A stretch of DNA of 34,433 nucleotides. Origin: Alphaproteobacteria bacterium (GTDB lineage: Bacteria; Pseudomonadota; Alphaproteobacteria; CAAHEQ01; UBA3637). Positions 6,612 through 26,060 of the stretch are shown piece after piece; within the stretch, counting starts at the first letter, position 1; each line of letters opens with the position of its first letter. The position numbers and the translations under genes were made by a program. Below the pieces are notes generated by a model. That model had not been told where the DNA came from and ran no database searches. It saw only the letters and a program-made list of their open reading frames with translations. The stretch lies in NCBI GenBank assembly GCA_045614105.1, contig JAZLCF010000080.1:1-34433 (forward strand). The letters are read 5' to 3'.

Positions 6612-7046
6612 TTGGATCAGGTGAATAATAGCTGTTATCTTGTAGGAACAAACCAACCTCATGGCAGAGGCATTCATGGTAACTGTGAATGTAAAAACAT
6701 GAAAAACAATCAATGTCTTTGTCCAGAAAATACGATGTGGAGTACGTCATGGCAACGATGTGAGGCATGCACGAATAGGGATACTTGGAGGGCAACAACA
6801 GAAATATATAAGCATAGTTGCTTGGAACAGATGTATTACTTGGATAGTGGAAGCTTATATGGCTGTCTTTCTTCTCCTAATACAGGTTCAGAAGCATCTG
6901 GTGCCGATGAGTTATCTTGCAAAGAATGCAAAAACAGTGAAGGCGTAAAGAATCGTTGTTTTGATGCGAACAACGACAATACCTGCCGCTTGGTTGGCAA
7001 TGGGTATGCTAGAGATAGTGAAGGCAACTGTGTCAGTACACAATAG
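6612..7046 (+). CDS. Hypothetical cysteine-rich protein (14 Cys in 144 aa; start codon uncertain, TTG 6612 / GTG 6621 / ATG 6699)
   Basis: Long ORF in an otherwise non-coding gap. CxC and CxxC pairs and a repeated C-x-LVG-x(8-12)-GNC unit. No recognisable Sec signal. Own promoter-like element. Confidence 0.5.
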   Translation: MDQVNNSCYLVGTNQPHGRGIHGNCECKNMKNNQCLCPENTMWSTSWQRCEACTNRDTWRATTEIYKHSCLEQMYYLDSGSLYGCLSSPNTGSEASGADELSCKECKNSEGVKNRCFDANNDNTCRLVGNGYARDSEGNCVSTQ

Positions 7047-13231: not shown

Positions 13232-13624
13232 ATGACTGACAAACAAAAGTATTACCCCGAATTAAACGGTAAATGTGATTTTCCCAAAATGGAAGAGGAA
13301 GTCTTAAAACATTGGGATGAAAATCATATTTTTGAAGCGGTAAAAGATGCACGCAAAAATGGAGATGAGTTTGTGTTTTATGATGGCCCGCCCTTTGCAA
13401 ACGGACAACCACATTATGGTCATATTTTTGTCTCATATGTTAAAGATGCCGTGGCTCGTTTTCAAACCATGTTGGGCAAGAAGGTGGAACGCCCCTATGG
13501 TTGGGATTGCCATGGTTTGCCAGCGGAAATGAATGCCGAAAAAGCCTTGGGTATCTCGGGACACAAAGCCATTAAGAATACGGTGTGGATAAGTTTAACA
13601 ATTTCTGCAAAGAATCGGTGTTAA
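13232..13624 (+). CDS. ileS: Isoleucine-tRNA ligase (type 2), N-terminal fragment up to the frameshift near 13576
   Basis: HIGH motif PHYGH and GWDCHGLPAE. Homology ends at ..GISGHKAIK (13574-13576); the remaining 16 codons are out of frame. Confidence 0.9.
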   Translation: MTDKQKYYPELNGKCDFPKMEEEVLKHWDENHIFEAVKDARKNGDEFVFYDGPPFANGQPHYGHIFVSYVKDAVARFQTMLGKKVERPYGWDCHGLPAEMNAEKALGISGHKAIKNTVWISLTISAKNRC

Positions 13625-16344
13625 AATATTCTGGTGATTTTGTGGATTTATTTCACCGAATGGGGCGTTGGATTGATCCAACTTTGGAATATCGAACCAT
13701 GGATTTACCCTTTATGGAATCGGTGATTCAAAACTTTAAGGCGTTGTATGACAAAGGTTTAATCTATCAAGATTACCGTGTGCAACCCTATTCTTGGGCA
13801 GCACAGACGGTATTGTCCAATTTTGAGGTGAATCAGCCTGGTTGCTATCGTGATAAAGTTGATACCGCTATCACGGTGATGTTCAAATTGGAAAATGGCA
13901 TGCATTTATTGGTATGGACGACAACACCATGGACGCTTTTTTCTAACCAAATGATTGCGGTTGGCGAGGATATTGATTATGCCGTGATGGAGGAAAACGG
14001 TGGAAAATATGTACTGGCCGAAGCTTTAAAAGGTAAATATGCCAAACAGTTAGAGAATGCCGTACAAGTGGCCACAATGAAGGGATCCGAATTGGTGGGC
14101 ATGTCCTATGAACCCATGTTTCCACATTTTGCCGCCCTAAAAGAAAAAGGTTGTTTTAAGGTCTTGGCTGGTGATTTCGTGTCTATTGAAGATGGTACTG
14201 GTATGGTCCATATTGCGCCAGGATTTGGTGCAGACGACTTTGATGTATGTCGTAAATATGATGCGCATTTCCCGATTGTTTGTCCAGTGGATGAGGCTGG
14301 GTGTTTTACTGCCGAGGTGCCAGAAGTTCAGGGAAAACAAGTATTTGATGCCAATGAATATGTGTTGAATTATTTAAAAGAACATCGTTTGTTGGTGAAA
14401 AAAGAGCAAATTACACATACTTATCCGTATTGTTGGAGAACAGATACACCATTGATTTATAAAGCCATGTCTGGTTGGTTTGTGGATGTACCGAAATTCC
14501 GTGAAGAATTGTGTCAGTTGAATCAAACGATTACATGGACACCGGAACACATTAAAGATGGCCGTTTCGGCAAGTGGTTAGAGGGTGCCCGTGAGTGGTC
14601 TATTTCCAGAACACGTTATTGGGGGGCGCCAATTCCTGTATGGCAATCGGACAACCCAAAATATCCGCGGACAGATGTGTTCGGTTCTGCCGCTGAAATC
14701 AAGAAAAAAACGGGGTGTGATGTGACAGATTTGCATCGTCCGCTCATTGATCAGGTGGTTTATCCGAATCCAGACGATCCCTCGGGTCAATCTATGATGC
14801 GTCGTGTGCCAGATGTGTTTGATTGTTGGTTTGAATCGGGTTCTATGCCGGAAGGTCAGATCCATTATCCGTTTGAGAAAAAAGAATGGTTTGATAATCA
14901 TTTTCCGGCCGATTTCATTGTGGAAGGCGTTGATCAAACACGCGGATGGTTCTATTCTTTACACGTGTTGGGAACGGCTTTGCATCATAAACCCGCATTT
15001 AAGCATTGTATGGTGACGGGCTTGGTAATGGCCGAAGGTGGCGTCAAAATGTCCAAAAAATTGGGCAATTACCCAGATCCTTACATTATCTTGAATTCTT
15101 CCGGTTCGGACGCAATGAGATGGTTTTTGTTGTCCTCATCCATTGTCCATGGCGGCAATGTGTATATGGATGCACAGGGGAAAGAGGTCTCCAAGGCTAT
15201 GCGTAAAGCTGTGTTGCCCTTTTGGAATGCCTATTATTTCTTCTGTCTGTATGCTAATGCAGAAGGTGTCAAAGCCAATATGACAACATCCGCTACGGAC
15301 GTATTGGATCGGTATATTTTGGGTAAATTAAAGAATTTAACACAAAAGGTTAAAGCCGAAATGGCGGATTATGACATGCCGGCTGCTGCTGAGAATTTGG
15401 CGGATTTCTTGGATATTTTAAACAACTGGTATATTCGTCGTTCACGTGAACGTTTCTGGGATGGTACCGATCAAAAGGCCTTTGATACATTGTACACAGT
15501 GTTGGTCACCTTGGCCAAGATTATGGCACCTTTGATGCCATTCTTGACAGAAACAGTTTATCGTGGCTTGACGGGTGAAAAATCTGTGCATTTAGCAGAT
15601 TGGCCCAATGTGAATGCATTGACAGATGAAGCCAAGTTGATTGAACAAATGGACTTTGTGCGGGCGATTTCTTCCACAGCAAAGGCTATTCGTGAGGAAA
15701 ATCATTTGCGCAATCGTTTGCCACTTTCTAAGATGACGATTGCAGGTGAACAAGCAAACACTTTGACTGATTTTGTGGAATTATTAAAAGACGAAGTCAA
15801 TGTCAAAGAGGTTATCTTTAATACAGATGTGGCTGCGGTGGCCGATAAATTCTTGTATTTGAAAACGCCTTTGATTGGTAAGCGTTTGGGATCTGCTATG
15901 GGAGCTATTATGACCGCCAGCAAGCAAAATCAATGGACCGTCAATTCCGATGGAACTTTGGCAATTGCAGGACAAACACTCAATGCTGATGAATTTGAAT
16001 TGCGCTTAAATATGAAAGAAGGATTCAAAGGTCAACCATTGTCAGATAACCGTGCTGTTGTGCAATTAGACGTTGAAGTCGTTCCCGAACTGGAACGCGA
16101 GGGTGTTGCCCGTGACTTTGTGCGTATGGTGCAACAACTGCGCAAAGACAAGGGATTTGATGTATCTGACAGAATCACACTGACTTGGACATCCGACTCT
16201 ACCTTGGTCAAGGAAGCGTTTAAAGAACATGCTGCTTATATTGCTGAACAAGTGTTGGCCACGACATTTGTTGAAGGCGCAGGTTCTGACAAAACCGAAG
16301 AACTAGGCGACAGACAAGTATCCTTTGCCATTCAAAAAGTATAA
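13585..16344 (+). CDS. ileS: Isoleucine-tRNA ligase (type 2), main body in the -1 frame (frame open from 13576)
   Basis: Continues EYGVDKFNNFCKESVLKY... with WCISRTRYWG-like WSISRTRYWGAPIP and KMSKKLGN (KMSKS). 919 aa as listed. Confidence 0.9.
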   Translation: MDKFNNFCKESVLKYSGDFVDLFHRMGRWIDPTLEYRTMDLPFMESVIQNFKALYDKGLIYQDYRVQPYSWAAQTVLSNFEVNQPGCYRDKVDTAITVMFKLENGMHLLVWTTTPWTLFSNQMIAVGEDIDYAVMEENGGKYVLAEALKGKYAKQLENAVQVATMKGSELVGMSYEPMFPHFAALKEKGCFKVLAGDFVSIEDGTGMVHIAPGFGADDFDVCRKYDAHFPIVCPVDEAGCFTAEVPEVQGKQVFDANEYVLNYLKEHRLLVKKEQITHTYPYCWRTDTPLIYKAMSGWFVDVPKFREELCQLNQTITWTPEHIKDGRFGKWLEGAREWSISRTRYWGAPIPVWQSDNPKYPRTDVFGSAAEIKKKTGCDVTDLHRPLIDQVVYPNPDDPSGQSMMRRVPDVFDCWFESGSMPEGQIHYPFEKKEWFDNHFPADFIVEGVDQTRGWFYSLHVLGTALHHKPAFKHCMVTGLVMAEGGVKMSKKLGNYPDPYIILNSSGSDAMRWFLLSSSIVHGGNVYMDAQGKEVSKAMRKAVLPFWNAYYFFCLYANAEGVKANMTTSATDVLDRYILGKLKNLTQKVKAEMADYDMPAAAENLADFLDILNNWYIRRSRERFWDGTDQKAFDTLYTVLVTLAKIMAPLMPFLTETVYRGLTGEKSVHLADWPNVNALTDEAKLIEQMDFVRAISSTAKAIREENHLRNRLPLSKMTIAGEQANTLTDFVELLKDEVNVKEVIFNTDVAAVADKFLYLKTPLIGKRLGSAMGAIMTASKQNQWTVNSDGTLAIAGQTLNADEFELRLNMKEGFKGQPLSDNRAVVQLDVEVVPELEREGVARDFVRMVQQLRKDKGFDVSDRITLTWTSDSTLVKEAFKEHAAYIAEQVLATTFVEGAGSDKTEELGDRQVSFAIQKV

Positions 16345-16355
16345 AATCCTACCAT

Positions 16356-16389
16356 AATCCCTGATTTCTCTTTATCAGGGATTTTTTTA
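16356..16389. terminator. Intrinsic terminator hairpin between convergent ileS and the pilus operon
   Basis: 10-bp stem AATCCCTGAT (16356-16365) / ATCAGGGATT (16374-16383), 8-nt loop, then a T7 run on the + strand. Strong for ileS. The T-run is weaker on the - strand. Confidence 0.7.
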
Positions 16390-16410: not shown

Positions 16411-17538
16411 CTAACCTCCGCTACCCAGCCCCATACCTGCCGTCATTTGGTCTTGCATTTCAAAGGTACCCCAAACGGTCCATGCCAAGAATGCAGCAAT
16501 AAACAAAATAGCCGCACCATTTAAGATACCCGCAATAGACTCAATCTGACGAATAGAATTTTCCAACCAGCTATTGGCCAAATTTTCCAACGCCTCTGGG
16601 AAAGTATCCAATTCCGCATAAATACGCAAATCTCCAATAATTTCATCATCTGGAAATTTCAGGTGGGTATGATACAAAGCCTCGCCTAAGTTATCACCAT
16701 TATTGACGTACATTAAAGCTCGCACCACGCGGAATTTTAAATAAGGTGACGCACCCTCATCTGCCAAAGCACGCATAGCTTTGGACACAGGCATTCCTGC
16801 ACGCACCAAAGCCGACAAAGAAAGCAACCAGCTGACACCAATAAAAATACGATAAATTGACCACGGTGGAATATTATCCACTTTCGCCCGTGATTTACCA
16901 CTCCAATATGGAAAAGAAATCAAACAAACAATCACAAGGACTGGCACAATAGAAAAAAGCAGCAACGGATGATGATCCACAAATTCAGACAGATTAACCA
17001 ATGCTTTTGCATAACCGCGCCACACCAATCCTGGCACAGCTTCCACCATCGGTGGCACCATATATTTCGCCACAGCCCATACAAGCAATGTGGAGGCAAA
17101 AATCAAGAATAAAGGATAGGAAACAGCACCCCACACTAAAGAACGCATTTTATTCATTCCCTCCACCACACGAACTGTGTGTTGCAAAGCCAAATCCAAC
17201 GCTGCCACGTCACCCACGGACAACATCAAAATTTCGGTGTTTGGCACCCAGCCACTCAATGCCTCTGAAAACGTGCTACCATTTCGGATACTTTGCATCC
17301 AAAAAGCCGTTGCAATCGCTGTAGAATCATCTGGCTTTTGTCCATCCTTAGAGGCAATAGAATATAATCGCTCCAACGCATCCATCAAAGAAAAACGGTT
17401 TCTTAAAAGAGCCATCAATTTCCGATAAAGTTCCAACCGATCTGAGGCATAAATTCGCATTGAAAACCGTGCATACCAAATATTGATGATATTTGTTTTC
17501 AATGATTTTTCCATTGCTTGTTTAACATGATTATCCAT
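16411..17538 (-). CDS. Type IVb pilus/T2SS platform protein (GspF family; R64 PilR / TcpE / BfpE-like)
   Basis: 375 aa polytopic membrane protein with two GspF-like repeats and the size typical of T4b platform proteins. AGGAG RBS. 15 nt after the ATPase gene. Confidence 0.8.
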   Translation of the reverse strand: MDNHVKQAMEKSLKTNIINIWYARFSMRIYASDRLELYRKLMALLRNRFSLMDALERLYSIASKDGQKPDDSTAIATAFWMQSIRNGSTFSEALSGWVPNTEILMLSVGDVAALDLALQHTVRVVEGMNKMRSLVWGAVSYPLFLIFASTLLVWAVAKYMVPPMVEAVPGLVWRGYAKALVNLSEFVDHHPLLLFSIVPVLVIVCLISFPYWSGKSRAKVDNIPPWSIYRIFIGVSWLLSLSALVRAGMPVSKAMRALADEGASPYLKFRVVRALMYVNNGDNLGEALYHTHLKFPDDEIIGDLRIYAELDTFPEALENLANSWLENSIRQIESIAGILNGAAILFIAAFLAWTVWGTFEMQDQMTAGMGLGSGG

Positions 17539-17553
17539 TTTAAAACTCCTTGT

Positions 17554-19521
17554 TTAATTTAAATTCAATTGATCCAAAAATCCAGTCCATCTTTCAACTT
17601 CTTCTATATCAATCAATCCTTGGAACATTCGCGCCAAAGCGTTTTCTCTTAATGTACGCCCATTCAAGTCATTAATCCAATAGTTTTGAGCCTTTTGTAC
17701 CTCTCCTTTTAAAATAAGATTCAAAAAGGTCGAGTCAGGCAAAATAAACTCAGCCACAGCGGTACGCCCACTGACCCCTCTAAAATTACATTCTGCACAA
17801 CCAAGACCTCTTAAATAGGCATACTCCAGTCCCACATCCCCAAAGGCACTACGCAACCGTTGAACAGCAGGATTGTCCAAATGTTCCTTAGCCGGAATAC
17901 GACAAACAGGACACAGTTTTCTGAATAAACGTTGAGCCAACATGCCACGCATAATCGTTGGATCCTGCAACTTAAAATCTTCAACGCCCATATCCTTTAA
18001 ACGGAGTAAAATCGCGCTGGCTGTATTCGCGTGCAAAGTTGTCCACACATTATGCCCAGACAAGGCGCCACGGAAAGCCAAATCCGCTGCCGACAAGGTT
18101 CGAATTTCTCCGATCATCAACGAATCGGGGTCTGAACGCAAAGCTGCTGACAGGGCTTTGGTAAATTCCCTATCCTTTGCCTCTTCAATCCCTGCATTCG
18201 TCACAGGCATTTGCCGCGCCCCTGGAATCGGATATTCTGGCGGATCTTCCACGGTAATCAGGTTGGTCTCATAATTACGTTCTTTCAACATCGCAATCAT
18301 ATTGCGCTGTAAGGTCGTAGATTTCCCCGAACCCGTTGGCCCTGACACAATAATAATCCCAGTTGGAATTGCCCTTAATTGATAAAAAAGATCCGTATCC
18401 CTTTTGGAAAAACCAAGCTCTAACAATGCCGCTTCTGGATTAGAAGTTGATTCATCAGCATATAATAAACGCATCACCACATAACGTGTACCAAAGGCAA
18501 TCGGGTTAAATTGCAAACGAATACCCAAGATATTTTTTGGCAAAACCAAACGACCACCAGATCCACGCAATGGGGTACGCCCTAATTTTTGTGCCGCCTG
18601 ATACTCATTTTGAGCATAGTTTGAATCTGAAATATCCGATGACGCAAATGCTGCACGCACAAAACTTTCGCCCCATTCGCGATTATATTCCATTTCTGTT
18701 TGCATCAAACCATTCACACGAAACATAACGGTTGTATGATCCGCCACAACGATATGAATATCTGACACCTGATTCATTGCCGCCCGAGAAACAACTGTCA
18801 CAAAATCGCGCTGCATACGCGTTTGCTCTTGATTTTCCTCATCTGTAAAAGTTTGATCTGCCGCATGTAATTGGGAGGCATAATCATAAATATCTTTTAA
18901 AAGTTCTTTGGATACATATTCAGGTTGGCCTAATTGCAAACGCCGTTTTTTGGCCAAATATTCAAAACCCAACACACGCCCATCATATTTAGCATCTTCC
19001 ACAACAAAAAAACGACCATTGGAAAATAACGCCAATAATTCGCGCGTTTGATCACTGGCAGGAAATGCCCCAGAAGGCAAAGTTATACACTCATTACCAT
19101 TTGAATATAATTCTTTCAGCAAAGCCTTTCTAGAACGGTGTTCATCATCTTCCTCTTCTTCGGGAACTTGATTATTTGAAGAAGGCGTCTCTTGATGAGG
19201 CTCAGACGCCGGAATTTCTGACTTTTGCTCTGGCTGAGGCTGTTGCTCGGAAACAACCGACTCCTGCACAGGAACATCTGGAGCTCCTTCTTGATCTTGA
19301 TCCGTTACTTGTGCACCTTGTTTTGCAGGATAATCTTTTAAACTGGTCAAAACCTCGGATAAAGGAACCTGGGGACTTAAAATCTGATCCGCTGTGGCCA
19401 TATTATCAGGGGCAGAAGTTTCAGAATCTTCAACCAAATCCAAAGATTGGAAATCTTGATCCTTTGTATCTTCTGCCTCTTGTTCTTTTGGTGGCTCAAC
19501 AGGCTTCTCAGTAGTTTCCAT
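17554..19521 (-). CDS. Type IV pilus/T2SS assembly ATPase (GspE/PilB family; R64 PilQ-like) with acidic N-terminal extension
   Basis: 655 aa. Walker A GPTGSGKSTT, Walker B DSLMIGEIR, His box GHNVWTTLHAN, tetra-Cys motif CPVCRIP..GCAECNFRG. The first ~130 aa are E/D/Q/P-rich low complexity. Confidence 0.9.
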   Translation of the reverse strand: METTEKPVEPPKEQEAEDTKDQDFQSLDLVEDSETSAPDNMATADQILSPQVPLSEVLTSLKDYPAKQGAQVTDQDQEGAPDVPVQESVVSEQQPQPEQKSEIPASEPHQETPSSNNQVPEEEEDDEHRSRKALLKELYSNGNECITLPSGAFPASDQTRELLALFSNGRFFVVEDAKYDGRVLGFEYLAKKRRLQLGQPEYVSKELLKDIYDYASQLHAADQTFTDEENQEQTRMQRDFVTVVSRAAMNQVSDIHIVVADHTTVMFRVNGLMQTEMEYNREWGESFVRAAFASSDISDSNYAQNEYQAAQKLGRTPLRGSGGRLVLPKNILGIRLQFNPIAFGTRYVVMRLLYADESTSNPEAALLELGFSKRDTDLFYQLRAIPTGIIIVSGPTGSGKSTTLQRNMIAMLKERNYETNLITVEDPPEYPIPGARQMPVTNAGIEEAKDREFTKALSAALRSDPDSLMIGEIRTLSAADLAFRGALSGHNVWTTLHANTASAILLRLKDMGVEDFKLQDPTIMRGMLAQRLFRKLCPVCRIPAKEHLDNPAVQRLRSAFGDVGLEYAYLRGLGCAECNFRGVSGRTAVAEFILPDSTFLNLILKGEVQKAQNYWINDLNGRTLRENALARMFQGLIDIEEVERWTGFLDQLNLN

Positions 19522-19538
19522 ACATTCCTTCTTACAGA

Positions 19539-20384
19539 TTAAACATCATCAAAAATCAAAGCAATTTTCTGACCATCTTTATTCAAAATAACCTGTGTTG
19601 CAGAAATAGACTCTACACGACTTCCATCCGTCAACTCATCTCCAATCTGAACACTTGAAACACGGCCAGAATCAACACTTTTCAGGCGAGCATTGAGCAT
19701 ACCTCGTGTACCAGTTATATCTACAATTTCATAGTTCTTAACCACTTTATCGCTGGCAGCAGCATCCGCCTCAGATGCGCCTTCATCGGTATTCTCTGGC
19801 TCAATCACTGTGGCAGAAGTCCCTTGGCCAGCCTTAGCAGCCTCCAAAGCAGCCCGTTGTTTTTCCAAATCTTGGCGCACCTTTTCCTGTTCTTGCCACC
19901 ACTGAATACGGGTCCGAACCACATCTTCGCGCTTGGCAATTTCATCCAACCGATCTTGGCGGTATCTTGCCCGCAATTTTTCCAAATCATTTTTCATCGT
20001 TTCCTTTTGGATTTGCAACTTCAAAAAGGTATTATCACGCTCCAACTCAGCCATCTCCTTAAAGACTTCTGGCGTCAACATACCAATCAACCTTTCGCTA
20101 GGCATATCCTTGGCAGAAACAGAAGCCGCCAAAGGCAAAGGCCCATTGATATCTGTTTCATAAATTCCAGGCAATGGTGCCAATTCCAACGAATCTAGCG
20201 AGGTTCGCGCAGGGAAATCCACCGCTTGCTTATCCGACAAATCAGGCGTATTATCCATCTCCTGTCCAACAGCCATAGACTCCTCTTCTGGCAACAGGAA
20301 ATCCTCAGCCTCCTGTGCCTGAACGGCAACGGCCATCAACAGCCCACCTAAACACACAATTTGGTATAAAAATTTATTTTGCAT
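19539..20384 (-). CDS. PilP-family type IVb pilus biogenesis protein with long coiled-coil insert
   Basis: Start at ATG 20384 (GGGAGG RBS); signal peptide MQNKFLYQIVCLGGLLMAVAVQAQ. The C-terminal ..ARLKSVDSGRVSSVQIGDELTDGSRVESISATQVILNKDGQKIALIF resembles the PilP beta-domain. Central ELERDN..EAAKAG is coiled coil. Confidence 0.7.
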   Translation of the reverse strand: MQNKFLYQIVCLGGLLMAVAVQAQEAEDFLLPEEESMAVGQEMDNTPDLSDKQAVDFPARTSLDSLELAPLPGIYETDINGPLPLAASVSAKDMPSERLIGMLTPEVFKEMAELERDNTFLKLQIQKETMKNDLEKLRARYRQDRLDEIAKREDVVRTRIQWWQEQEKVRQDLEKQRAALEAAKAGQGTSATVIEPENTDEGASEADAAASDKVVKNYEIVDITGTRGMLNARLKSVDSGRVSSVQIGDELTDGSRVESISATQVILNKDGQKIALIFDDV

Positions 20385-21693
20385 AAATCCTCCCTTCATA
20401 TTTCCATTTTGTTGTTGTATCATTCGACGGATTATACTCTATTTTAGAGAGCTCAAATCCCGAAAATTTTTCGAAAAACTTTATCCACTCCCACGGCGTG
20501 TAATCAGAGTTTGTGGAAAACGAAAAATAGGTATATGTTTTTTGACTTGCGGGACGAGATCCATCTGGATTGGTCGGTGGATCCAACATCGTTTGTTGTG
20601 AAAATTGGAAGCCTAAGCCCGTCATTTGTTGAATCTCAGTCAAATCCTCTTGTAATTCTTTAACAGACAATGTGGGCATAGAAGCAATTGTCGGCAAATC
20701 TTTGAAAGTAATAGAAGCAGAGGCCGTTGACGGATTATTTGTATCCACAGTCAACTCAGTGAATTGGTACTCCTTGACACCAAAACGCAACCATGACAAC
20801 AAACCTTCCCGACCACTTTTTGTCCAATTCGTTTTGATTCCTTCCGAATTACAAGTAATCAACCCCAATCTCCAACCAGGAAATGACACCGATTTAATCT
20901 GATAAATATCATTCCAACAAGCGCGAATCAAAGCATTAACCTCTGTCAATTGTTCCCATGGCTTTGGCTTTTCTGGCTCTGGCGCAACAGGCTGAATAAC
21001 CTGAGGCGTTTGAACGGGCTGAATAACCTGCTTTGGCGTCAAATTCTTCCACAATCCTACCAAGGCATACACTAATGCAATCAAGGCAATGACAATAATG
21101 GCAGCAATAAAAATTAAGAAATAGGTTTTTCTGGCGGCATTGATATCCTGCAAACGCACCTTCATACCCTTGCGCGTCAAACTGGACAAAGAATCTTGCT
21201 GAGTTCCCTCCATGCCCCATTCTTCTGGCACAATCTTGACATCCCAATCTGGCACAGCCATCATAGAGGCATAGGCACGTCTGGCGTCCTCTTCTGTCTC
21301 AAACAAAACGTCCTCTTCTGCCAAAATCAAATTATTGCGGGCCGCAACAAACCACCAACCCTCTTTTACCTTGAAAACAGCACAAAAAGATTCATGTGCC
21401 GCCAAAGCTTCAGCCACAGATGCAGCCAAAGAAGGCATCCCATTACGATGACCCATAGAACTGTGCCCAATACCATACTGAGCGACACTTGTTTGTCGAT
21501 AACAATATAAATCAGCACCTGGCTCGCTGGCAACAGTTTCTTTAATTTCCGTTAAAGGATCATCCAAATTTTGAACAGGTTGCCACGTCAATCCAACGGC
21601 ATAACTTTGCCCATCAACGCCCACAACCCCACGTCTAATCGGTGGGGATTGTGTTTCATTGGATGTTGGAACCGTGTTCTCGTTGTCTGCCAT
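20374..21693 (-). CDS. PilO-family (PAP_PilO / PilO2-like) type IVb pilus accessory protein
   Basis: 439 aa. N-terminal cytoplasmic domain with ..GQSYAVGLTWQP.., a single central TM (TYFLIFIAAIIVIALIALVYALVGLW) and a periplasmic C-terminal domain. Position between the secretin and PilP as in R64. Confidence 0.65.
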   Translation of the reverse strand: MADNENTVPTSNETQSPPIRRGVVGVDGQSYAVGLTWQPVQNLDDPLTEIKETVASEPGADLYCYRQTSVAQYGIGHSSMGHRNGMPSLAASVAEALAAHESFCAVFKVKEGWWFVAARNNLILAEEDVLFETEEDARRAYASMMAVPDWDVKIVPEEWGMEGTQQDSLSSLTRKGMKVRLQDINAARKTYFLIFIAAIIVIALIALVYALVGLWKNLTPKQVIQPVQTPQVIQPVAPEPEKPKPWEQLTEVNALIRACWNDIYQIKSVSFPGWRLGLITCNSEGIKTNWTKSGREGLLSWLRFGVKEYQFTELTVDTNNPSTASASITFKDLPTIASMPTLSVKELQEDLTEIQQMTGLGFQFSQQTMLDPPTNPDGSRPASQKTYTYFSFSTNSDYTPWEWIKFFEKFSGFELSKIEYNPSNDTTTKWKYEGRIYAK

Positions 21694-21702
21694 ATTAAAC
21701 CT

Positions 21703-23328
21703 CTATTGTGAATTCATCAATGCCTCGGGGGACAAGGGGGATTGCAAAATCTCAGGTGTAATCAACACAACCAATACTTCGCGCGTATTCTCATTTTTAG
21801 ACTGACCACCCAATAAACCCATTTTTGCCTTTCCAATACCCGATGTTTGAGTTCTATCTGTCACTCTTTCAAATCCAGTTAAAACAAGCGTAGAACCAGA
21901 TTGCATAGCAACCTCTTGCATAAAGCCTCGCGCAGCCATCGTTGGTAACTGAAGTGTTGTCTTCTCTGTTTCCGCATCCGAATCTTCCTCCGAATCATCA
22001 CCCGAACTGGAAGCTCCACCATATGCAACCGTTTTCAGTTCTAACAAATCCGTTATACTCATTGAAAACATAAGAATTAAACGTCCATGATCCAGTATAC
22101 GAGGCAATACATCCACTGTAAAACCATATGTTAAAGTATCTGTCTGTACGTCCGTATCTGTTGTTCTATCCTCACCCGAACCCGAAGATGTAACACTTAT
22201 CTCTTTAATATAGTTCTGACTGGTTGTCACTTGAACAGGCGCAACCTTGTTATTCATTGTCGTCACACTTGCGCTCGTGATACTTCTTGTTTTTCCTTGA
22301 GATGAAAGCGCTTGGATAATAGCATTGGAACCATTAAATTTGCTACTTTTTTTAATAACCGCCATCGCTAATTGACCAACTCCTGCAGATGGCGTTGCAG
22401 CAACACTACTCGCACCAAATCCAGTTGGAGATAAAAATGAAGCCAAAAGGTTTTTACTACCAAAAACAACTCCAAGGTCTAATCCATAGTCATCACTATT
22501 CGTCAGACTGACGCCCAACACACGAACAGTTACAGCCACTTGACGCGACAATCTATCATTCCAAGAAGCCACATATCTGGCCACTTTTTGAATGACAAAG
22601 GGACTAGCGGTCACTGTAATAGTTCCCGTCACACGACTGAAAGATAATTGACCATTATCGCCAACAACTTGCTTCACACCTTCTTCAATGTTCTCCCATA
22701 AGCCCAAATTAGCCGAGGTAGATAAGCTAGAACTCGCACTTCCACTACCCTCTCCCATCGTGGAACCAGACATGCTGGCACTCATACTGGTTTCTGTTGG
22801 CAAGGCATAGATTGTAAAGATACGTGTTTCGTTGGCAAAAAAGCTGATTTCCTTATTACGATATTGCCAATAAACACCATAGCGATTGGACAGATAGTTC
22901 AAGAGGCCACTCAATTTACCCGAATAACGCACGGTAATGGCGTCCTCTGGCACAGCCTCATCCAGCTTCAAATCATCCAAGCGGACGGGAATGTTCGTCA
23001 AATCCGAAATTTGCTGAGCCAAATCAGGCAAAGTTGCATCCTCGGCAATGGAAATCGTGATACCATCTTCCTTTTCCAACCAAGCAGGCAGTGTTTCACC
23101 CTCCATAATCTTGATACTTTCATTACCCAACCAAATATCATTATGCATCCGAACTGTGTCGTTTTCTTCCGGCATCATAGGAATTTGAGCCTGTTGGTTG
23201 TATTCTTCAATCCGCTCCAACGTTGTTTCAATTTTTTTATCCGTTTGAGCCACATATTTATTGCATGCCGACATCAAAACACACCCTGCCAGCAAAGCCA
23301 TTAAAGAAAAGCTATATTTTTTACGCAT
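21703..23328 (-). CDS. Type IVb pilus secretin lipoprotein (R64 PilN / BfpB / TcpC-like)
   Basis: Lipobox MRKKYSFSLMALLAG-C. C-terminal secretin signature GSTLVLTGF..TSGIGKAKMGLLGG..REVLVVLITPEIL. ATG 23328 has AGGAGG 6 nt upstream (the ORF-track start at 23334 abuts the RBS). Confidence 0.85.
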   Translation of the reverse strand: MRKKYSFSLMALLAGCVLMSACNKYVAQTDKKIETTLERIEEYNQQAQIPMMPEENDTVRMHNDIWLGNESIKIMEGETLPAWLEKEDGITISIAEDATLPDLAQQISDLTNIPVRLDDLKLDEAVPEDAITVRYSGKLSGLLNYLSNRYGVYWQYRNKEISFFANETRIFTIYALPTETSMSASMSGSTMGEGSGSASSSLSTSANLGLWENIEEGVKQVVGDNGQLSFSRVTGTITVTASPFVIQKVARYVASWNDRLSRQVAVTVRVLGVSLTNSDDYGLDLGVVFGSKNLLASFLSPTGFGASSVAATPSAGVGQLAMAVIKKSSKFNGSNAIIQALSSQGKTRSITSASVTTMNNKVAPVQVTTSQNYIKEISVTSSGSGEDRTTDTDVQTDTLTYGFTVDVLPRILDHGRLILMFSMSITDLLELKTVAYGGASSSGDDSEEDSDAETEKTTLQLPTMAARGFMQEVAMQSGSTLVLTGFERVTDRTQTSGIGKAKMGLLGGQSKNENTREVLVVLITPEILQSPLSPEALMNSQ

Positions 23329-24160
23329 TATCATCCTCCTGTGTATTGATAACTAGCACACGGTTGCCCTTATAGAACGTGCCAATTGGTGCGGGTACAG
23401 CACGCGCAAAGGTGCGAATAATTGCGCTTGCCACTTCGACAAAGTTTCCACGGAACACAACGCCCGCCTCCAAAATGTAATCTCTGTCCAGTTTCCAAAC
23501 AACCGTCCAGCCGGACTTTTGCCCCCATTCAATCAGCAACGAACGCAAACTGTCGCCATTGTTGGCCTCCCAATCGTGAGCCGCTTCGCCATAGGCCAAC
23601 TTACCCCCGCGTTGATGCGCCGAAATAGACGGCATTTCCACATAAGGTGGTGTCACAGTTGTTTCTTTTCTGCGCGATGTTTTCACAATCGCCCCATCAG
23701 CCAATTGCTCTTGAGTGACATCACGTTCCATAATGAAGCTGCCCGTCTGAGTCTTATAAACAGCATATTCCGAGCCCAATTCCTCGTCATCATCCATTGG
23801 TTGAGTCACCGCCAACGGGGCAGCGGTATCACGCACAACAACTTGTTGCTGAGGCAACTCATAGCCCATACCAGGAACCACAAAATCTTGCCCAACCGTG
23901 GCTTGAATCGGCACATTTGGATTCATTGGATCAATATTGCCAGGATAAGCCGTGGGCACATAAGCACCTTGAGGATTGACTTGATAGTTCGCCCCACCAA
24001 GACCAGCGGATTGCTGAGCATACAAAGCAGCGCATTGCTCATTATTTGCATTCGGCCCTGTGCAATTGATAAAAATATCTTCAGCACGCACCTGTTCCGC
24101 CATCATCAGCGAAAAAGCAGCCACCAGTTGAATACCTAAATATAAATTTTGTTTCCCCAT
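23321..24160 (-). CDS. TcpQ-domain protein (PilL/TcpQ-like secretin-associated periplasmic protein)
   Basis: 279 aa. Signal peptide. C-terminal SLRSLLIEWGQKSGWTVVWKLDRDYILEAGVVFRGNFVEVASAIIRTF matches the TcpQ/PilL C-terminal domain pattern. Overlaps the secretin start by 8 nt. Confidence 0.7.
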   Translation of the reverse strand: MGKQNLYLGIQLVAAFSLMMAEQVRAEDIFINCTGPNANNEQCAALYAQQSAGLGGANYQVNPQGAYVPTAYPGNIDPMNPNVPIQATVGQDFVVPGMGYELPQQQVVVRDTAAPLAVTQPMDDDEELGSEYAVYKTQTGSFIMERDVTQEQLADGAIVKTSRRKETTVTPPYVEMPSISAHQRGGKLAYGEAAHDWEANNGDSLRSLLIEWGQKSGWTVVWKLDRDYILEAGVVFRGNFVEVASAIIRTFARAVPAPIGTFYKGNRVLVINTQEDDNA

Positions 24161-24216
24161 TTTTAACTCCTTTTTTTTAAACCTAACATAATTTTTAAGA
24201 ACTTACAACACTTTTT

Positions 24217-25056
24217 TTACCATATCAAACTTTTTTGATCTTTAATCACTCGTTTTGTCTCCATCGGCACTACAACTTGCGTCTGATTTGGATCTGTTTC
24301 TGCGCTTAGAATCATACTATTTACATCACGATTTGATTGATAAACACGTATTTGTTTTGCCGACAATCCTTTTTCAATAGCCAACCGCATAATCAGCCCC
24401 AAACGCGCCCGTTGCAGTGGCCAATTTTGGTTGCTGATCCGAATATTGAAAACTAAACGAGGATCTTTTTGAACATACAAAGAATACGCCTTTATCCATT
24501 TAACCACGGATTCAGATAAATGCGTTGAATTTTCATCAAAAATCAGACGCATTTCTTTGGGCACTTGAAACATTGCCTTTCCCTTCCCAATCGTTTCTTG
24601 AGCCAAAAACTTGGAGGCATAGGCTGACTTATATTGTGATTTTGTGGGCGGATCTGGGTTCGGCTCTGACACAGGCGGAATCGGATCTAGTGGCGTCAAC
24701 AAGGGCCCATTTGAGCTGGTCTGAATTTTGGGCGTAGGATAAAACATTTGACGCTTTCTAGTCCCAGTTGTCGCCTGTGGGGCTGGTGCTGTCACGTTTT
24801 TGTTCTCACCAAAAATTTCGTTTAAAATGTCCACATCCGAGGGAATAGATTGCGGCGCCCCTGAATCGGCAGGCTTTATCACCACTTGTTGAGACACAAC
24901 AGGTGCGGTTGGCGCATCAAAATATGAAGGCAACAAGAAATCATCCCCAGAACCATTAAAAACAGAAATATCCACATTCTGCGCCAACGCCGTCTGGGAG
25001 GTGATAACACATATCCCTATACACACTTTTTTAAGTATTTCCTTGCAATGACGCAT
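24217..25056 (-). CDS. Secreted proline-rich protein, first gene of the pilus-like operon; possible degenerate OmpA/MotB-like C-terminus
   Basis: 279 aa. Signal peptide ..VITSQTALAQ|N and a P-rich linker (PLDPIPPVSEPNPDPP). The C-terminal NQNWPLQRARLGLIMRLAIEKGLSAKQIRVYQSN loosely follows N-x2-L-S-x2-RA..G...I. Confidence 0.6.
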   Translation of the reverse strand: MRHCKEILKKVCIGICVITSQTALAQNVDISVFNGSGDDFLLPSYFDAPTAPVVSQQVVIKPADSGAPQSIPSDVDILNEIFGENKNVTAPAPQATTGTRKRQMFYPTPKIQTSSNGPLLTPLDPIPPVSEPNPDPPTKSQYKSAYASKFLAQETIGKGKAMFQVPKEMRLIFDENSTHLSESVVKWIKAYSLYVQKDPRLVFNIRISNQNWPLQRARLGLIMRLAIEKGLSAKQIRVYQSNRDVNSMILSAETDPNQTQVVVPMETKRVIKDQKSLIW

Positions 25057-25102
25057 CCGCGCCCCCTTTCAAACGATTGAATACATCATAAAATTTAAAA
25101 AG

Positions 25103-25117
25103 TTAATTTTTGATTAA
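25103..25117. promoter_or_regulatory. CtrA-type full binding motif TTAA-N7-TTAA
   Basis: TTAA (25103-25106) TTTTTGA TTAA (25114-25117), 47-61 nt upstream of the operon ATG at 25056. It is the only perfect TTAA-N7-TTAA I found in the intergenic regions of this window. Confidence 0.35.
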
Positions 25118-25164
25118 GAGAAATAAAAAAAATGCATCTTTTTGCAAAAAAAATAAAAAAGTGT

Positions 25165-25192
25165 TTGAATTTCGTTTAAAAAGGTGTATGAT
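25165..25192 (+). promoter_or_regulatory. Putative sigma70 promoter TTGAAT-N16-TATGAT
   Basis: TTGAAT at 25165-25170, 16-nt spacer, TATGAT at 25187-25192, upstream of the VirB2-like gene. Confidence 0.35.
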
Positions 25193-25249
25193 TAACTCAA
25201 GGTTGATGCAATTTCAATCTGTGTTTAATAAAAACAAGAAGGAGAACGA

Positions 25250-25604: not shown

Positions 25605-25633
25605 AGCCCTGCCTTTGGCGGGGCTTTTTTTTT
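25605..25633 (+). terminator. Rho-independent terminator
   Basis: 9-bp GC-rich stem AGCCCTGCC / GGCGGGGCT with a TTT loop (25605-25625), followed by a T9 run. Confidence 0.8.
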
Positions 25634-25748: not shown

Positions 25749-26060
25749 CTATTTCAATTTAACTGTTCTCTTATCTACTTTTTTTCTTTCGGTAATTGCC
25801 TGAACGGCTTCTTCAGCAGAAGCCTTATTATCCGACGCGATATCCTGCAAAAGCCAGTCTAACTCTTTAGAACCCGTTGACGAGGTACTTTTCGTTGTCC
25901 CAGTTTTCCCCGTCCCCGTGGCGATACCTTGCAACGTCTGTGTCAAGTTTGAATTTGATTCTGTCGAATTTTTCGTATTATTCGTGTTGTTGGCGGCACC
26001 AACTTGTGTGGCCACTAAAACAGATGCAACAATCATTAAAATCGGCAAAGAAAAGCGCAT
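25749..26060 (-). CDS. Small secreted Asn/Thr/Ser-rich protein, hypothetical
   Basis: 103 aa. AGGAGG RBS, signal peptide MRFSLPILMIVASVLVATQVGA, low-complexity NNTNNTKNSTESNSN..TGKTGTTKSTSSTGS, charged C-terminal helix. Confidence 0.65.
   Translation of the reverse strand: MRFSLPILMIVASVLVATQVGAANNTNNTKNSTESNSNLTQTLQGIATGTGKTGTTKSTSSTGSKELDWLLQDIASDNKASAEEAVQAITERKKVDKRTVKLK

Follow-up and report, generated by a model that had tools for sequence, protein, structure and literature searches.

The locus described here raises a simple question: where is the fibre of a pilus machine whose operon encodes none? The operon lies on contig JAZLCF010000080.1 (assembly GCA_045614105.1) of an uncultured alphaproteobacterium, and the whole 34,433-nt stretch analysed is referred to below as the window. 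Seven tightly coupled open reading frames (ORFs) on the minus strand, g1 to g7, span positions 16411-25056. A first-pass annotation had recognised them as a type IVb pilus-like machine and had left two explanations, namely that the fibre subunits are supplied in trans, or that the operon is a pared-down, type IVb-derived envelope machine. We consider it likely that the operon encodes the assembly machine of an R64-variant (PilO2) type IVb pilus on the chromosome of a gut or rumen bacterium, and that the pilins are encoded in trans in this subclade.

All seven ORFs were recovered where the first-pass annotation had placed them. The junction lengths it had given also matched exactly, once starts backed by a ribosome-binding site (RBS) were applied to g3 (23328) and g5 (20384, with the RBS GGGAGG); the gaps are 56, 9, 17 and 15 nt, and the overlaps 8 and 11 nt. 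A GGAG-like RBS precedes each of the seven starts. The hairpin shared by the operon end and the convergent ileS was located as well (Table 1). The neighbourhood consists of housekeeping genes (polA, dnaX, dnaE, ileS, ssb, envZ/ompR) with ~42% G+C, and no tRNA genes were found in the 34-kb window.

In hidden Markov model searches, six of the seven proteins matched type IV or type IVb pilus families, the most diagnostic models being PF06864 and TIGR02520, while g1 had no match. PF06864 is confined to R64-variant (PilO2) pili and BfpC, and g4 falls within it; moreover, g4 is 24-26% identical to plasmid proteins labelled 'type 4b pilus protein PilO2'. The PilO2 family, with its actin-like N-terminal domain, and its role in R64-variant pili have been described previously (PMC3984277). 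Against TIGR02520 ('PilN family type IVB'), g3 scored 284.9 bits (E 1e-84), 2.7 bits short of the equivalog cutoff of 287.65. Other secretin models scored far lower, with MshL next best at 118 bits and GspD at 47. The C-terminal 76 aa of g2 share 46% identity with a homolog from the Methylorubrum extorquens AM1 megaplasmid, and residues 256-290 of g5 gave weak C-terminal matches to T2SSB, T2SSC and SctD. PilP, the TcpQ/PilL-type partner, the PilQ ATPase and the PilR platform thus occur together in a single operon, a combination that characterises the R64 variant. The acidic extension of the ATPase (~130 aa) and the coiled coil of PilP, both noted in the first-pass annotation, are visible in the translations; among relatives of g6 the core is 56-87% identical and the total length ranges from 550 to 1019 aa. 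The proposed colinearity with R64 held for the core TcpQ/PilL-N-O-P-Q-R; pilI, pilJ, pilK, pilM, pilT, pilU and the pilV shufflon were not found here. These gene identities, and the synteny described below, were observed directly.

Table 1. Positions of the pilus operon and its adjoining features in the window
Feature	Positions	Strand	Evidence
g7, PilR-type inner-membrane platform (GspF/PilC family)	16411..17538	-	PF00482 T2SSF, 78.5 bits
g6, PilQ-type assembly ATPase (GspE/PilB family), variable acidic N-terminal extension of ~130 aa	17554..19521	-	PF00437 T2SSE, 230 bits
g5, PilP-like periplasmic connector: Sec signal, ~100-aa coiled coil, C-terminal beta domain	19539..20384	-	TIGR03021, 37.7 bits (cutoff 34.65)
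g4, PilO2, bitopic inner-membrane protein with cytoplasmic N-terminal domain	20374..21693	-	PAP_PilO PF06864, 82.9 bits (cutoff 26.7), residues 32-438
g3, PilN-type lipoprotein secretin (outer-membrane pore)	21703..23328	-	PF00263; TIGR02520; LLAG/C lipobox
g2, TcpQ-domain protein (TcpQ2/PilL-like secretin partner), Sec signal peptide	23321..24160	-	PF10671, 64.9 bits (cutoff 27)
g1, secreted accessory protein: Sec signal, disordered Pro-rich linker, predicted C-terminal OmpA/MotB/Pal-like domain (~residues 165-255)	24217..25056	-	AlphaFold2 and Foldseek
Probable divergent promoter region g1/g0	25057..25249	.	Invariant blocks in seven-relative alignment; promoter-like hexamers on both strands
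g0, probable VirB2/TrbC-family type IV secretion pilin gene: Sec signal, two transmembrane helices, KWKK basic loop	25250..25588	+	PF04956
Hairpin terminator, convergent ileS and g7	16356..16383	.	10-bp stem, then T-run

The first-pass annotation had reported no pilin, prepilin peptidase or retraction ATPase in cis. Six-frame motif scans over ORFs of any length revealed no class III prepilin with the family-specific motif in the 34 kb. A looser scan ([GAS]-x4-E plus a hydrophobic stretch) gave three chance matches only, and tblastn of the window with five pilins from related loci returned a best E of 0.18. A second T2SSE ATPase was likewise not found in the 34 kb. An A24 peptidase was found neither in the window nor in 1.69 Mb of related loci, either with the GGGDxK motif over the locus ORFs or by tblastn with the A24 peptidase of a Salmonella plasmid, although one motif and one distant query are weak tests. 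Since the scans for pilin, peptidase and second ATPase all came up empty, the reported absence was confirmed in full; its wording needs one correction, as R64 pilT encodes a lytic transglycosylase and not a retraction ATPase. We also found no PilV-type minor pilin or adhesin in the window and saw no shufflon. Candidate PilV-like large proteins with a pilin N-terminus occur in the relatives L015 (808 aa), L037 (901 aa) and L048 (472 aa), and carry no Pfam domain (L-numbers denote fetched loci). A missing cis peptidase has precedents: PAPI-1 and Burkholderia pseudomallei Tfp7 lack pilU2 in cis and depend on a peptidase encoded elsewhere, and in Tfp7 TcpQ2 replaces PilL2 (PMC3984277). In models of the superfamily of type IV filaments (TFF), the type IVb pilus peptidase counts as a 'loner' gene, which different systems can share (PMC6668835).

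A scan of GTDB species representatives gave 80 loci, and 83 related loci were fetched in all. Relatives of g6 form more than 100 close clusters at 64-87% identity, all from unnamed or 'Alphaproteobacteria bacterium' metagenome-assembled genomes (MAGs). The MAGs behind the related loci were sampled from the rumen and from human, rabbit, chicken and other guts, and Proteobacteria bacterium CAG:495 and Candidatus Scatocola are among them; the latter is filed by NCBI under Rhodospirillaceae incertae sedis. We take these MAGs to represent the GTDB order RF32. Our literature search for a pilus of this kind in RF32/CAG-239 gut Alphaproteobacteria returned nothing relevant. The order g1 to g7 is kept in the 83 loci wherever the contig covers it, while the flanks vary between ileS with ankyrin-repeat genes, enolase, or prophage. 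In the comparison with L001, the closest relative of the window and likewise without a cis pilin, synonymous divergence is near saturation (dS 0.8-2.4), and the ratio of nonsynonymous to synonymous divergence (dN/dS) is 0.03-0.19 for every gene. The lowest value belongs to g7 (97% identity), and the highest to g1. This purifying selection was again observed directly.

A decaying, non-functional remnant of a mobile-element pilus locus might be suspected, given that the locus has lost its pilins and second ATPase and that the closest annotated relatives are plasmid-borne. Nevertheless, all ORFs are intact and preceded by RBSs, the dN/dS values are low, and the operon is conserved in the 83 loci within different housekeeping contexts, so that we regard decay as highly improbable. 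Judged by these sequence comparisons, the operon is functional and, because it occupies varied chromosomal contexts as a functional unit, it appears to have been vertically inherited. The flanks bear on another proposal, a competence pilus for DNA uptake. In L085, L086 and L091, the operon has a ComEC gene at a distance of 5-8 kb. However, housekeeping genes (TIM, SecG, DAHP synthase, enolase) separate the two, ComEC is absent from the window, and the protein families are of the R64/bundle-forming-pilus type rather than Com or type IVa. A competence role is therefore very unlikely.

The relatives show where the pilins are kept. Directly 3' of pilR, 27 of the 83 loci carry one to three tandem prepilin genes of the PilS/bundlin type (170-210 aa). 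The N-terminus of these cis pilins reads ...EQS-G/RSMVEMLGVLAIIGVLSVGG, and the prepilin signature across the relatives is G/RSMVEMLGVLAIIG, where the slash marks the predicted cleavage site. One cis pilin matched both PF08805 (PilS, 53 bits) and PF05307 (bundlin, 43 bits), which are type IVb pilin families. The loci concerned belong mostly to more distant relatives, with ATPases 57-65% identical to that of the window, and to a group at 67-72%. In this clade, the first gene after pilR encodes the same globular domain behind an uncleaved transmembrane segment, and in 22 loci a second T2SSE ATPase of ~320 aa follows the pilins (best model pilT_fam, 102 bits, below its cutoff). Because pilins and a second ATPase follow pilR, the deeper relatives possess a complete type IVb pilus locus.

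Closer to the window, the pilins are displaced. No pilin lies within ~9-10 kb of the operon in 47 of the 83 loci, including all that are at least 76% identical to the window. L051 and L091, which belong to the subclade of the window (ATPase 75% and 78% identical), have a pilin of 155-171 aa encoded between g0 and enolase, so that a single gene separates it from the operon. MAG GCA_017412085.1 (ATPase 80% identical) has the same g0-g7 layout and no cis pilin; it encodes three trans pilins with the same N-terminus, II938_00335, II938_00655 and II938_02900. The first is located at 34646-35065 of contig JAFPYS010000002.1, ~25 kb from the operon (~60.7-69.4 kb on the same contig), and adjoins a gene for a VirD4-like coupling protein. 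Housekeeping genes surround the other two, of which one follows a PvlArgDC-permease-GT2 block. Both the cis pilins of the relatives and the trans pilins of this close relative are direct observations. Comparison of L091, L085 and the window indicated that inversions and translocations around the operon detached the pilin, whereas g0 stayed attached.

These arrangements bear on the two explanations left by the first-pass annotation. A pilin-less, pared-down machine derived from a type IVb pilus and repurposed, e.g., for secretion or export, would agree with a window that lacks pilin, peptidase and second ATPase, with the occurrence of the same truncated layout in the 47 loci mentioned above, and with the purifying selection. 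Yet a close relative with an identical layout has three matching trans pilins, other members of the subclade hold a pilin one gene away, and the deeper relatives pair the machine with canonical type IVb pilins and a full pilus set in cis. Moreover, the seven proteins are alike in kind between pilin-linked and pilin-unlinked loci. We thus give the pilin-less machine a very small probability, whereas the proposal of fibre subunits in trans is supported. An ordinary split type IVb pilus, which the first-pass annotation had treated as the outcome that would undo its claim, largely describes the situation for the pilins; as to the peptidase, the fetched flanks of the relatives contain none, which matches what is published for PAPI-1 and Tfp7.

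Several further features were seen around the pilin genes and the 3' end of pilR. In L052-L083, the ~0-4 kb 3' of pilR (e.g., L058:12725-16520) hold the uncleaved-transmembrane pilin-domain protein, the tandem pilins and the second ATPase, often followed by a vWA protein, a PP2C phosphatase and a Ser/Thr kinase. In eleven species, the 3' end of pilR borders directly on a prophage-like block (terminase, head-tail connector, capsid, nozzle, cell-wall hydrolase): L002 (13040-21929), L003, L008-L010, L012, L013 and L015-L018. The trans pilins of GCA_017412085.1 (L084:6528-13500, L088:6951-10381) adjoin GT2/GT8 glycosyltransferases and, in one case, the VirD4-like coupling protein. Such neighbours could point to pilin glycosylation and to a link with a secretion system.

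We must also note the points that weigh against an R64-variant pilus with pilins in trans. For the organism of the window itself, the evidence covers the 34-kb stretch, and its trans pilins and peptidase are predicted. The trans pilins of GCA_017412085.1 match Pfam weakly, through the N-terminal methylation motif alone, and it is the N-terminus shared with the cis pilins that would connect them to the machine. Cleavage is predicted ahead of an Arg at position +1, a residue that is unusual there in type IV pilins. Finally, one motif and one distant query revealed no A24 peptidase in the related loci. We nevertheless infer that the genome of the window encodes both pilins and peptidase in trans, and the role of the pilus is likewise deduced.

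The family assignments suggest how such a machine would work. The PilQ ATPase (g6) would drive the PilR platform (g7), and together they would extract processed pilins from the inner membrane. This inner-membrane motor would be connected to the PilN lipoprotein secretin (g3) by PilO2 (g4) and the coiled-coil PilP (g5); the TcpQ protein (g2) would support the secretin, and the OmpA-like g1 probably anchors the complex to peptidoglycan. The fibre would consist of short-leader type IV pilins with ...ES-G/RSMVEMLGVLAIIGVLSVGG at the N-terminus, whose genes were presumably split from the operon in this branch by local rearrangements; in the deeper relatives, pilins and the second, small ATPase still come immediately after pilR. 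Across the family, the prepilin peptidase would be encoded in trans. A likely role of the pilus is adhesion or cell-to-cell contact in the gut, and it may in addition deliver target cells to the VirB-type system for which the secretion pilin gene beside the operon would code (see below).

The first gene, described previously as unknown, has no family match in Pfam or NCBIfam, the OmpA profile included; a predicted OmpA/MotB-like C-terminal domain can now be assigned to it. We found 21 homologs of g1, all within the same lineage. They share the signal peptide, the motifs DFLLPSYFD and DVDILNEIFG in the Pro-rich disordered region, and the C-terminal domain. The AlphaFold2 (AF2) model of this domain (predicted local distance difference test, pLDDT, 88-93) has a beta-alpha-beta-alpha-beta-beta fold, and Foldseek against the PDB matched it to YiaD, MotB, OmpA-like proteins and Pal (E 4e-6 to 1e-4, probability 1.00, TM-score to target 0.5-0.64). 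The peptidoglycan-contact motif N-x2-L-S-x2-R-A is kept only in part, as NWPLQRAR with an invariant Arg218. The modelled domain probably binds peptidoglycan, which is plausible but unproven because the contact motif is only partly kept. No similarity was detected between g1 and the same-position proteins of the Salmonella plasmid and M. extorquens loci (BLASTP for the Salmonella protein only; profile search). On the strength of the model, we read g1 as a lineage-specific cell-wall anchor of the secretin complex.

On the other side of g1, transcribed divergently, lies g0. PF04956 was matched by all 26 aligned members of the g0 family (best E 1e-12), although the copy in the window, at 23.9 bits, stays under the cutoff of 27.9. 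Searched as a profile against the PDB, g0 gave chance matches only, and the single-sequence AF2 model (pLDDT 62) was too poor for a fold search. The gene ends before a terminator at 25605-25625. A g0 gene is found divergently upstream of g1 in 56 of the 83 loci, often in two to four copies. In nine loci, g0 is followed by a virB3-like gene and VirB4 (PF03135, 44.9 bits). Because it heads this virB2-virB3-virB4 string, g0 is assigned to a type IV secretion system (T4SS), and its sequence context suggests that it is probably the pilin gene of a VirB-type system that is separate from the pilus operon and ancestrally adjacent to it.

The intergenic stretch between g0 and g1 contains blocks that are invariant in seven relatives, including TTTCAAAC, GTTAATnAAAAATTAA and TTTTATGATG, and an inverted repeat, AAGATTG-N9-10-CAATCTT, which is imperfect in the window (~25197-25221). 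The blocks are conserved despite the near-saturated synonymous sites of the flanking genes (dS 0.8-2.4). This stretch probably serves as a shared regulatory region, to judge from its conservation.

The persistent neighbourhood could also be explained by a hybrid machine, in which the type IVb motor and secretin handle the VirB2/TrbC-like g0 instead of, or besides, type IV pilins. Such a machine would account for the presence of g0 beside the operon in the 56 loci, for its retention through the rearrangement that split off the pilin, and for the conserved intergenic region. However, g0 heads the virB string in nine loci, its signal resembles that of a signal peptidase I substrate and not a class III signal, and canonical pilins exist in the same genomes. 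We know of no precedent for a type IVb machine handling a VirB2-like protein, and this explanation is extremely improbable.

It is possible, though we would sooner bet against it, that the pilus operon and the VirB-type T4SS make up a single chromosomal apparatus for contact, co-regulated and inherited vertically. The pilus would then grapple bacterial or eukaryotic targets for a non-plasmid T4SS that delivers DNA or effectors. This proposal builds on the conserved divergent promoter region that virB2 shares with the operon, and on the linkage of virB2 to the operon, which is more constant than that of the pilin genes; several species are arranged as virB4-virB3-virB2 / g1...pilR-pilS, the slash marking the divergent boundary. 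Ankyrin-repeat proteins are frequent type IV secretion substrates in host-associated bacteria. Close relatives encode such proteins between the pilus operon region and ileS (L001:13141-14037, L085:20244-21083), and within a contact apparatus these would be candidate effectors. We also observed secreted proteins of 450-570 aa with a long coiled coil fused to a VirB2/TrbC-like two-helix domain, encoded upstream of g0 paralogs (L064:1-1718, L065:1-1344, L082:1-1631). In L058:1-1557, which is cut at the locus end, only the coiled-coil part of such a fusion is visible. To our knowledge, these fusion proteins have no described counterpart.

Three observations concern other parts of the window. The ileS gene (13232-16344, plus strand) is broken near 13585-13600 into ORFs of 130 and 919 aa, whereas in relatives it is a single ORF of 1035-1037 aa. 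The break corresponds to an apparent 1-nt deletion, the window having AAGAATAC where the frame requires AAGGAATAC, and it is most likely a sequencing or assembly error because ileS is essential. A Cys-rich ORF of 144 aa (6612-7046, plus strand) lies between an ABC transporter gene and dnaE; it was considered as an adhesin fragment and rejected, having neither a Pfam match nor relatives in the fetched loci. A small secreted protein of 103 aa, rich in Asn, Thr and Ser, is encoded between g0 and envZ at 25749-26060 (minus strand). It has a counterpart in L001 only (38% identical), and its position is held by a 415-aa repetitive secreted protein in L004 and by a 345-aa secreted protein in L011.

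Reading the locus as a type IVb pilus with pilins in trans removes a false lead: it would be a normal pilus whose subunit genes have drifted from the assembly genes, and not a new machine that lacks a fibre. Such a split layout is typical of type IVa pili and was already known in part for type IVb. Five features appear to be specific to the lineage: the OmpA-like g1, the variable acidic N-terminus of the ATPase, the long coiled coil of PilP, the Arg at the predicted +1 position of the pilins, and the virB2 linkage. In terms of ecology, uncultured gut and rumen Alphaproteobacteria keep this pilus under strong purifying selection beside a type IV secretion pilin gene, and those that carry it probably rely on contacting other cells or the host. 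For annotation, the pilin signature given above can be used in related MAGs, and the formerly blank g1 gains a likely peptidoglycan-anchoring role.

Among annotated sequences, the best matches to the operon are the M. extorquens AM1 megaplasmid (L089) and the Salmonella Macclesfield plasmid NZ_CP022118 (L090). A tblastn search of plasmids with PilO2 likewise returned the AM1 megaplasmid (24.5% identity over the full length) and enterobacterial 'type 4b pilus protein PilO2' genes. Identities of the window to L089 and L090, respectively, are 32 and 26% for PilN, 26 and 26% for PilO2, 37 and 34% for the ATPase, and 33 and 33% for the platform. The Salmonella locus has the same core order as the window, from a hypothetical protein through TcpQ, secretin, PilO2, PilP, and ATPase to the platform. 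Its complete order is A24 peptidase, lytic transglycosylase, large pilin-like protein, major pilin, hypothetical protein, TcpQ, secretin, PilO2, hypothetical protein (at the PilP position), ATPase, platform, and PilT-like ATPase. It therefore differs from the window in having the peptidase, the transglycosylase, the major and large pilin-like proteins, and the PilT-like ATPase in cis, and the 288-aa protein at its g1 position is unrelated to g1.

B. pseudomallei Tfp7 (pilV2 M2 S2 R2 Q2 P2 O2 N2 and tcpQ2), compared here by description and not by sequence, resembles the window in being chromosomal, in having TcpQ in place of PilL, in its PilN/PilO2/PilP/PilQ/PilR core, and in lacking an operon-encoded peptidase (PMC3984277). 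In contrast to the window, Tfp7 keeps pilS2, pilM2 and pilV2 in its operon, whereas the window adds the OmpA-like g1, the long acidic N-terminus of the ATPase and the long PilP coiled coil. The thin pilus of IncI1 R64 (pilI-pilV) shares the core order L(TcpQ)-N-O-P-Q-R and, like the deeper relatives of the window, places PilS-type pilins behind pilR (PMC3984277). Unlike the operon described here, it is plasmid-borne, with pilI, pilJ, pilK, pilM, pilT (lytic transglycosylase), the pilU peptidase and the pilV shufflon in cis, none of which was found in the window. The PAPI-1/integrative and conjugative element pilus of Pseudomonas aeruginosa (pilL2 N2 O2 P2 Q2 R2 S2 T2 V2 M2) also has no cis peptidase and uses PilD encoded elsewhere (PMC3984277); it differs in lying on a mobile island and in keeping its pilins in the operon. 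R64 and the related IncI2 plasmid TP114 have their pilus physically linked to a T4SS (PMC3984277; PMC9045228), and the TP114 pilus stabilises mating pairs in the gut (PMC9045228). The PAPI-1 pilus is reported to serve a conjugative T4SS (PMC5297154). The pairing of g0 with the pilus operon recalls these thin pili and their conjugative T4SSs, and by analogy the two systems may cooperate here as well.

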